Assembly (NCBI RefSeq): GCF_003018255.1
Contig: NZ_CP027440.1
DNA length: 64,000 nt
Reading direction: 5' to 3' (one strand)
Source: Escherichia coli
GTDB taxonomy: Bacteria > Pseudomonadota > Gammaproteobacteria > Enterobacterales > Enterobacteriaceae
Shown: piece by piece, positions 25,694 to 57,314 of the stretch
How positions within the stretch are numbered: the stretch's first letter is position 1
How the letters are laid out: each line of letters begins with the position of its first letter
Notes under the pieces: generated by a model
What the model was told of the DNA's origin: nothing
Database searches by the model: none
The model's input: the letters and a program-made list of their open reading frames with translations, nothing else
Made by a program: the position numbers and the translations under genes

Positions 25694-25783
25694 TCAGTGC
25701 AGCGCGGCAGTCAAACCCACGGCCACGATCAAACCGAGGACGATAATCGTTGTTACCAGTGAAAATTTAAGGTCGGTGCTCAT
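25694..25783 (-). CDS. ynhF: 29 aa hydrophobic small membrane protein
   Basis: Manual translation of the minus strand: ATG...TGA encoding MSTDLKFSLVTTIIVLGLIVAVGLTAALH; below the ORF-track size cutoff; matches the small protein YnhF I recall between ydhP and purR. Confidence 0.7.
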   Translation of the reverse strand: MSTDLKFSLVTTIIVLGLIVAVGLTAALH

Positions 25784-26021
25784 CAAGTTTTCTCCTTTTT
25801 TATTACCACACAAAAAGTGATATTACGCATTTTTACACACTGTGATGAAAAAATCTCCCGTCATTTATAATGATAAGTGTTTTTACCACTTCCCCTTTTC
25901 GTCAAGATCGGCCAAAATTCCACGCTTACACTATTTGCGTACTGGCCATTGACCCCTTCCTGACGCTCCGTGTCGTTTTTCCGGCGTACCGCAACACTTT
26001 TGTTGTGCGTAAGGTGTGTAA

Positions 26022-26037
26022 AGGCAAACGTTTAGCT
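26022..26037 (+). promoter_or_regulatory. PurR operator (pur box) O1 in the purR leader
   Basis: AGGCAAACGTTTAGCT matches the pur-box core GCAAACGTTT; purR is autoregulated by two downstream operators. Confidence 0.7.
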
Positions 26038-26081
26038 TGCGATTTTGCAGGAGCTGAAGTTAGGGTCTGGAGTGAAATGGA

Positions 26082-27107
26082 ATGGCAACAATAAAAGATG
26101 TAGCGAAACGAGCAAACGTTTCCACTACAACTGTGTCACACGTGATCAACAAAACACGTTTCGTCGCTGAAGAAACGCGCAACGCCGTGTGGGCAGCGAT
26201 TAAAGAATTACACTACTCCCCTAGCGCGGTGGCGCGTAGCCTGAAGGTTAACCACACCAAGTCTATCGGTTTGCTGGCGACCAGCAGCGAAGCGGCCTAT
26301 TTTGCCGAGATCATTGAAGCGGTTGAAAAAAATTGCTTCCAGAAAGGTTACACCCTGATTCTGGGCAATGCGTGGAACAATCTTGAGAAACAGCGGGCTT
26401 ATCTGTCGATGATGGCGCAAAAACGCGTCGATGGTCTGCTGGTGATGTGTTCTGAGTACCCAGAGCCGTTGCTGGCGATGCTGGAAGAGTATCGCCATAT
26501 CCCAATGGTGGTGATGGACTGGGGTGAAGCAAAAGCTGACTTCACCGATGCGGTCATTGATAACGCATTCGAAGGCGGCTACATGGCCGGGCGTTATCTG
26601 ATTGAACGCGGTCATCGCGAAATCGGCGTTATCCCTGGCCCGCTGGAACGTAACACCGGCGCAGGCCGCCTTGCCGGTTTTATGAAGGCGATGGAAGAAG
26701 CGATGATCAAAGTGCCGGAAAGCTGGATTGTACAGGGTGACTTTGAACCTGAATCCGGTTATCGCGCCATGCAGCAAATACTGTCGCAACCGCATCGCCC
26801 TACTGCCGTCTTCTGTGGTGGCGATATCATGGCAATGGGCGCACTTTGTGCTGCTGATGAAATGGGTCTGCGCGTGCCGCAGGATGTTTCGCTGATCGGT
26901 TATGATAACGTGCGCAACGCCCGCTATTTTACGCCAGCGCTGACCACGATCCATCAGCCAAAAGATTCGCTGGGCGAAACGGCGTTCAACATGCTGTTGG
27001 ATCGTATCGTCAATAAACGCGAAGAACCGCAGTCCATTGAAGTGCATCCGCGCTTGATTGAACGCCGCTCCGTGGCTGACGGCCCGTTCCGCGACTATCG
27101 TCGTTAA
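26082..27107 (+). CDS. purR: purine repressor (LacI family)
   Basis: 341 aa [31 protein letters not shown]...; recognised as PurR. Confidence 0.95.
26110..26125 (+). promoter_or_regulatory. PurR operator (pur box) O2 inside the purR coding region
   Basis: GAGCAAACGTTTCCAC at codons 10-15 of purR; second pur-box match. Confidence 0.65.
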
Positions 27108-56926: not shown

Positions 56927-57314
56927 TATATTGACCCTTTCCTGCGGTCTGTGATGTAGGTCGATACACTGTTCTTTCAGGCGGCTGCAATAGCGCACTG
57001 AAAGGTGATGTTTGTTTACTCTATGGATTTCGTGTTGCAGGAAGGCGGCAAGCGAGTGAACTCCAGGAGCTTACAACAGTAAGTAACTGGGGTGAACGAA
57101 CGTAGCCGCAGCATATGCAACTTGAAATACGACGAGTAAATCGTTTGCGTGTTGCCTGAGTTGTTGTACCACATTTTTTTCTAACACGCCCATCAGAATT
57201 AAGGGCAGAATCGGCCTGTTAAAAACCGCTGAAATTGCTCATCATTATGCAGGTGAGTTTCGCGTGTTCACGTCGCGTCGACGATTTGACGCACAAAAAA
57301 GGTGAAAAGTAGTT

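Follow-up and report, generated by a model that had tools for sequence, protein, structure and literature searches.

The two pur boxes at the start of purR in this E. coli DNA are the operators purRo1 (O1) and purRo2 (O2) of the autoregulated purR gene, a system that was already published in 1990. The core finding adds nothing beyond what was known then, namely that purR is autoregulated via one leader operator and one intragenic operator. Our analysis adds three points: a constraint at the level of the DNA on codons 11-14 of purR, shown quantitatively; the finding that O2 is limited to Enterobacteriaceae and goes with Asn12 there; and an allele of O1 that is very rare. We consider it highly probable that the explanation as a whole, i.e., two-operator autorepression of purR by PurR through O1 and O2, is correct.

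Under this explanation, PurR loaded with hypoxanthine or guanine would repress its own gene through O1 and O2, both of which would lie 3′ of the promoter, O1 in the untranslated leader and O2 in codons 10-15. Bound PurR would most likely hinder RNA polymerase after initiation, as a roadblock of the kind shown for purB, and the outcome would be a mild negative feedback on the level of PurR. O1 would be a strong and ancient site and O2 a weak site that arose in the Enterobacteriaceae, where selection on the DNA itself would keep O2 and freeze the synonymous positions of codons 11-14. The sequence, position and non-random occurrence of the boxes, the identity of the gene, the conservation and the wobble constraint described below were observed directly in this study.

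Identification of purR and its two pur boxes

The window, by which we mean the whole 64-kb stretch of DNA that was analyzed, is a segment of the E. coli chromosome stretching from nth to ydiF, with 98.1% identity to positions 1711763-1775762 of MG1655; the nearest complete genome showed 99.7% identity over 24 kb. The ORF at 26082..27107 (+ strand, 341 aa) scored 711 bits against the NCBIfam PurR equivalog NF007979 (cutoff 501) and carries the RefSeq annotation purR, as does the locus in 5,424 E. coli genomes. It is located between cydH and punR in the gene order sodB-ydhP-cydH-purR-punR, which is the E. coli context. O1 (AGGCAAACGTTTAGCT, 26022..26037, no strand assigned) starts 60 nt 5′ of the purR ATG, i.e., in the leader/intergenic region, and is a variant of the published K-12 O1, which ends in ACCT. 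O2 (GAGCAAACGTTTCCAC, 26110..26125, likewise with no strand assigned) occupies nucleotides 29-44 of the coding sequence, from the last two bases of codon 10 to the second base of codon 15; these codons (R10 A11 N12 V13 S14 T15) encode the turn of PurR's own helix-turn-helix. The two boxes are 88 bp apart, centre to centre. The 301 b around both boxes equal MG1655 except for one base, 26035, inside O1, and O2 is identical to that of K-12. A first-pass annotation had reported two pur-box core matches, one in the purR leader and one in the coding sequence at codons 10-15, and had taken them for PurR operators of purR. Both 16-mers were found exactly at the positions given above, the codon numbering was confirmed from the ATG at 26082, and the operator assignment is borne out by the identity of the gene as a PurR equivalog and by the presence of the O1 motif in published ChIP data.

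A pur box is defined here as a 16-bp imperfect palindrome with a central CpG and half-sites of the type ACGCAAAC / GTTTGCGT. Both boxes have these properties, and both also sit at the start of a PurR-regulon gene, purR itself, in an organism that encodes PurR. Both carry the exact core GCAAAC–GTTT, and this shared 10-mer (GCAAACGTTT) occurs in the 64 kb, on both strands, only at these two sites. We also built a log-odds weight matrix; the 27 PurR motifs used for it come from Cho et al. (2011; PMC3159470; Table 1) and do not include purR's own site. These training sites scored between 11.9 and 25.5 bits. The window allele of O1 scored 18.0 bits, inside the training range and second in the window, while O2 scored 10.45 bits, sixth in the window and under the weakest training site. 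Judged by its sequence alone, O2 thus appears to be a weak box; it was accepted as real because of the exact shared core, the short distance to O1, the conservation and the literature. A search with the perfect palindrome ACGCAAACGTTTGCGT, with up to three mismatches allowed, found no match in the window; O1 of the window departs from it at four positions, which explains the empty result, and O2 at five. The perfect palindrome is too strict a probe, and the weight matrix was used in its place.

We give a practically negligible probability to the view that a short palindrome rich in A and T was matched here twice by chance. The matrix score of O2, taken alone, is unexceptional and would fit such a reading. 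However, two exact copies of the 10-mer stand against 0.27 expected, with at least two copies in only 2 of 100 shuffles, the two boxes are close neighbours at the gene for PurR itself, neither varies between species, and in vivo binding has been published as a ChIP peak. The conservation together with the published binding refutes a chance origin.

The top matrix score in the whole window (18.6 bits), above that of O1, belonged to a third pur box, AGTAAATCGTTTGCGT, at 57135-57150 (+) in the ydiJ/ydiK intergenic region, 165 nt 5′ of the ydiK ATG. It is identical in K-12 (MG1655 1768894-1768909) and, with the coordinates converted, falls inside the ‘ydiJ/ydiK’ PurR ChIP region, which is given without a listed motif in Cho et al. 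(2011; PMC3159470). Strain E04 is without this box and has a shorter ydiJ/ydiK intergenic region.

PurR binding at purR in the literature

PurR binding and the need for both sites are taken here from the literature. The title of the 1990 work of Rolfes and Zalkin reportedly places both purR operator sites downstream of the promoter, and its abstract is said to state that both sites are needed for a two- to three-fold autoregulation, that O1 is bound about six-fold better than O2, and that binding is non-cooperative. The description of that year is also said to locate O1 between the transcription start and the start codon. Our matrix scores, in which O1 lies above O2, agree with this affinity order. 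The purRo1 and purRo2 operators of E. coli K-12 purR (Rolfes and Zalkin, 1990, J Bacteriol 172:5758; Meng, Kilstrup and Nygaard, 1990, Eur J Biochem 187:373) belong to the same gene and occupy the same positions as the boxes in the window, and O2 is identical; K-12 purRo1, in contrast, reads AGGCAAACGTTTACCT, so that O1 of the window is not the sequence that was footprinted. The 1990 work of Rolfes and Zalkin is cited for exactly these sites in PMC5110547, PMC3548332, and PMC13328217, and in RegulonDB the PurR sites are supported by footprinting and site mutation (PMC3548332). Cho et al. (2011; PMC3159470) found an adenine-dependent in vivo PurR ChIP-chip peak at purR, and the motif given for it, AGGTAAACGTTTGCCT, is the reverse complement of K-12 O1. 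According to the same authors, PurR has its binding site within the open reading frame at purB and purR and there blocks elongation; the reference given for this is the purB study.

O2 constrains the codons of purR

Relatives of purR were fetched from species-representative genomes with a degenerate protein probe for codons 17-28, which has no overlap with the box, and 119 usable loci were obtained. Amino-acid identity was at least 89% in 25 orthologues, and every one of them carried Asn12 together with the core GCAAACGTTTC; in these Enterobacteriaceae species codons 11, 12, and 13 were GCA, AAC, and GTT in 25/25, and codon 14 was TCC in 24/25. The 25 species came from Escherichia, Citrobacter, Enterobacter, Kluyvera, Pluralibacter, Siccibacter, Cedecea, Mangrovibacter, Shimwellia, Phytobacter, and others, with family membership verified for the genera checked. 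In a full-length set of 22 Enterobacteriaceae orthologues (77-93% nucleotide identity), no more than 11 of the 322 degenerate codons were invariant, and three of these were codons 11, 12, and 13. Codons 11-13 formed the least variable three-codon window of purR (rank 1/288), which upholds the constraint that the first-pass annotation had proposed for the N-terminal codons under the intragenic box; the four-codon window likewise ranked 1/274 for lack of variation, and nucleotides 31-41 of the coding sequence tied for the longest invariant run in the gene. The frozen wobbles correspond to box positions 5, 8, 11, and 14, at which the published sites have A (22/27), C (27/27), T (27/27), and C (27/27), respectively. 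The wobble of codon 10, at box position 2, varies between A and C, and the published sites have C or G there about equally. Within the species, the K-12 form of O2 with 5 b on each side was found exactly in 5,332 of the 5,424 E. coli genomes.

Among the 119 loci sampled, O2 was confined to Enterobacteriaceae and never occurred without Asn12. The other Enterobacterales sampled, which include Yersinia, Serratia, Rahnella, Pantoea, Erwinia, Pectobacterium, Dickeya, Brenneria, Hafnia, Edwardsiella, Photorhabdus, Xenorhabdus, and Budvicia, have Gly12 (AGVS), no O2 box, and matrix scores below 0, save for Acerihabitans; the Vibrionaceae and Pasteurellaceae loci likewise have Gly12, no O2 box, and scores below 0. 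In these Gly12 lineages the same codons vary freely, the synonymous positions being free at GCN GGN GTN TCN, and Gly is found at residue 12 in nearly all more distant LacI-family proteins caught by the probe. Codon 12 of purR corresponds to window positions 26115-26117, and where it reads AAC (Asn) it provides the bases at the centre of O2. With Gly at this residue, box positions 6-7 would be GG, whereas A is the base in 25/27 and 17/27 of the published sites, respectively, so O2 cannot exist without a Gly-to-Asn replacement. The outlier Acerihabitans (Pectobacteriaceae) has Asn12 but reads GCT AAC GTA TCG with no box, which shows that Asn12 alone does not force the O2 sequence.

These data also bear on whether O2 is just a by-product of the conserved helix-turn-helix peptide A-N-V-S, which can be read as GCAAACGTTTC, with no selection on the DNA. 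In keeping with that reading, the box lies wholly inside highly conserved residues and its matrix score is weak, five other places in the window scoring equal or better. However, the peptide needs only GCN AAY GTN TCN, yet the first three codons are fixed in every orthologue and the fourth in all but one, and this stretch is the least variable of the whole gene. The frozen wobbles coincide with high-information columns of the matrix, and Acerihabitans, which encodes the same peptide, lacks the box, showing that the DNA sequence is not dictated by the peptide. We regard the by-product reading as very improbable, the wobble analysis having largely refuted it, and selection on O2 as DNA as the better account.

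A different possibility is that GalR, in addition to PurR or in its place, is the ligand of the boxes, above all of O2, with their conservation reflecting cross-regulation of purR. O2 departs at one position from GTGNAANCGNTTNCAC, which we take to be the gal operator consensus; the variable codon 10 wobble (A or C), however, sits where that consensus wants T. A GalR ChIP-chip peak, validated by ChIP-qPCR, was reported at ynhF/purR, and AGGCAAACGTTTACC and GTGGAAACGTTTGCT, the latter being the reverse complement of O2, are both listed as inferred GalR sites (PMC5110547), so that both boxes count as in vivo GalR sites in that study. Against this, the expression arrays of the same study showed little or no regulation of purR by GalR (PMC5110547), and PurR autoregulation via both sites has direct experimental support in the literature. 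We therefore consider it quite unlikely that GalR accounts for the boxes and retain PurR as their main ligand; part of the O2 constraint could serve GalR.

O1 is more widely distributed than O2. A box in the O1 place, about 60 nt 5′ of the ATG, is found in most Enterobacterales, with the form AGGCAAACGTTTACCT in Enterobacteriaceae and AGGCAAACGATTAACA or ACGCAAACGTTTAACA in other Enterobacterales. Its core GCAAACGTTT is invariant in 16/16 aligned Enterobacteriaceae species, and the flanks vary. No box was found at the O1 place in the sampled loci of Vibrionaceae and most Pasteurellaceae. This distribution fits the account of Ravcheev et al. (2002) that is given in PMC13328217. Both O1 and O2 are conserved beyond their surrounding sequence, and the distribution of the two boxes indicates that O1 is much older than O2.

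A very rare allele of O1

The single base in which O1 of the window differs from that of K-12 is 26035 (+ strand): it is G here and C in K-12, as in every other E. coli examined. The substitution turns ...TTTACCT into ...TTTAGCT and falls at position 14 of the box, or position 3 when counted on the other strand. We tested it with a 53-mer in which each 28-base word includes 26035: the window version was found in no complete E. coli genome and the K-12 version in 5,424, and in sensitive mode none of the 5,424 was identical to the 53-mer of the window, so that the G allele is present in 0/5,424 complete E. coli genomes carrying the locus. A 30-mer test with the K-12-type O1 and 5 b on each side gave exact matches in 5,416/5,424 and the G allele in 0. 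G at box position 14 was also not seen in the 25 other Enterobacteriaceae species, nor in any other species examined. Metagenome scans gave 0 hits for the G allele and only 5 for the C allele, the collection holding too few E. coli purR loci for a comparison.

Position 26035 is the only base of 24,001 at which the window differs from all five nearest genomes. If one private base were placed at random, it would fall in O1 with a chance of 16/24001 (~0.07%) and in the 104-b span of the finding with a chance of ~0.4%. The same comparison over all 64 kb, with three strains and K-12, gave 39 candidates. The nearest genomes had been selected for the 14-38 kb segment and the window is a mosaic, so that this count is uninformative elsewhere, and we rely on the 24-kb comparison alone. 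Among the matches listed, the G allele is present in the draft assembly GCA_029307295.1 (contig ABLCDI010000001.1), which matches the window without a single difference for 24,617 b; C was found at 26035 in two further strains that have the same Lhr protein. We rejected the idea that G is an artefact of the window, given a public assembly that is identical over 24.6 kb including the G; a sequencing or assembly error at this base in GCA_029307295.1 is possible.

At box position 14 the published sites have C in 27/27 on one strand and G in 24/27 on the other, and the C-to-G change costs 3.5 bits on the matrix, from 21.5 to 18.0. On this measure the G allele would weaken O1 modestly, and autorepression would be slightly weaker. 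Neutrality, assembly error, and an effect via the folding of the leader RNA are possible alternatives; in RNA folds of the O1 variant the change is local, and the energies differ by 1-2 kcal/mol in opposite directions depending on the fragment. Since the autoregulation is mild, any effect of the O1 allele should be small, and the allele matters only if PurR levels measurably change.

Position of the operators relative to the purR promoter

Because O2 lies within the coding sequence it is necessarily downstream of the transcription start, and at +29 of the coding sequence it can act only after initiation. This position, and the analogy with purB, suggest that PurR acts as a roadblock at purR as well. 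He and Zalkin (1992, J Bacteriol 174:7121) are cited as having demonstrated a PurR roadblock experimentally at purB. The purB intragenic operator resembles O2 in being a pur box inside a coding sequence, far 3′ of its promoter and bound by the same repressor, and Cho et al. (2011; PMC3159470) group purB with purR. The two genes differ in that purB has one operator deep in the gene with a roadblock that was shown, whereas purR has a leader site as well as an intragenic one, both weaker-acting, and a roadblock that is presumed.

A sigma-70 consensus scan of 25780-26140 found no strong promoter. The probable purR promoter region is 25905..25945 (+), where a conserved block GAT..CAAAATTCCACGCT is followed by an AT-rich −10-like stretch, forming a footprint in 16 species. 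Candidate −10-like hexamers are TACACT (25927-25932) or TATTTG (25932-25937), and E. albertii has TATACT in the place of TACACT. The upstream regions of these 16 Enterobacteriaceae, when aligned, show conserved blocks at 25906-25926, 25937-25986, and 26012-26019, in addition to O1, CAGGAG, and the Shine-Dalgarno region. The footprint, together with a conserved hairpin, suggests a purR start near 25940, which would place O1 near +85 and O2 near +175. That O1 lies downstream of the promoter we infer from the literature and from this probable promoter near 25905-25945.

The hairpin, at 25984..26010 (+) directly 5′ of O1, is of the type CGCAAC-loop-GTTGCG and was seen in single-sequence folds. In more than 20 Enterobacteriaceae folded in this way, a stem of 5-7 bp was kept in most, with changes on both sides and variable loops; stem variants include CGCAAT/ATTGCG and CACAATC/GATTGTG, and Phytobacter has a wholly different stem. 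The hairpin has no T-run after it and is absent from the Gly12 Enterobacterales. RNAalifold on a MAFFT alignment of the leader showed no covariation and did not recover the hairpin, the arms being misaligned in that alignment; the arms were picked by the folding itself, which makes the folds weak evidence. As a lead only, the hairpin is possibly part of a transcribed purR leader.

Other features of the region upstream of purR were also observed. In the cydH-purR gap, 25937-25986 is a strongly conserved non-coding block in Enterobacteriaceae, GCGTACCGGCCATTGACCCC..CCTGACG..GTGTCGTTTTCCCGGCG, which includes TTGACC and a terminator-like stem with a T-rich sequence after it; it might be part of a structured purR leader or the binding site of another factor. 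In several Enterobacteriaceae loci (L006, L016, L018, L084, L087, L103) the region matching 26048-26081 reads CAGGAGnTTAnGATATGGTCTGGAGTGAnATnTAATGG, in which CAGGAG resembles a Shine-Dalgarno sequence and precedes a mini-ORF of six codons, ATG GTC TGG AGT GAC ATT TAA, whose stop overlaps the purR ATG. The E. coli leader has TTAGGG instead of ATATGG and thus no mini-ORF.

It is unlikely, in our estimate, that O1 hinders initiation or promoter escape and not elongation, with a start just 5′ of O1, for example from a −10 element TAAGGT at 26010-26015. TAAGGT retains the T, A, and final T of a −10 hexamer, its +1 would fall at the edge of O1, and the sigma-70 scan offered no strong promoter elsewhere in the region. 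However, TAAGGT is without an acceptable −35 at the right spacing, and the conserved blocks and the hairpin between 25937 and 26019 suggest a transcribed stretch. O1 is also said to have been described in 1990 as lying between the start site and the start codon, and O2, as noted above, acts only post-initiation. Cho et al. (2011; PMC3159470), for their part, speak of an elongation block. A roadblock after initiation would therefore seem the better reading for both sites.

Comparison with other operator systems

The pur boxes that overlap promoters (purF, purHD, purMN, purL, purEK, purC, and others) share the 16-bp motif and the hypoxanthine/guanine-dependent repressor with the purR boxes. They differ in lying between or over −35 and −10, where they block initiation, and in strength, with a median of 20.3 bits against the 10.45 of O2. 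The lacO2 site inside lacZ and gal OE/OI are, like the purR boxes, cases of an intragenic operator of the LacI family paired with an operator near the promoter; among LacI-family predicted sites, fewer than 1% are in coding regions (PMC4052901). In lac and gal there is cooperative looping between phased operators, whereas the purR boxes are not in phase: their spacing equals 8.4 turns at 10.5 bp per turn, so that on this weak geometric test they do not share the face of the helix as looping would require.

Implications

With regard to origins, we consider possible, at somewhat less than even probability, a reading in which O2 is an innovation of the Enterobacteriaceae that needed the replacement of Gly12 by Asn in the repressor's own helix-turn-helix, and in which the C-to-G change in O1 is perhaps a natural operator-down allele that raises the PurR set-point. 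purR offers a clean and well-controlled case of a regulatory site that lies within coding DNA, and the footprint of such a site consists of wobbles frozen exactly at the informative motif positions together with a lineage-specific Gly-to-Asn replacement. The O2 footprint can be used as a positive control in genome scans for unknown intragenic operators. If the proposed origin of O2 is true, a regulatory DNA site in the Enterobacteriaceae would have dictated protein sequence, beyond the choice of codons.
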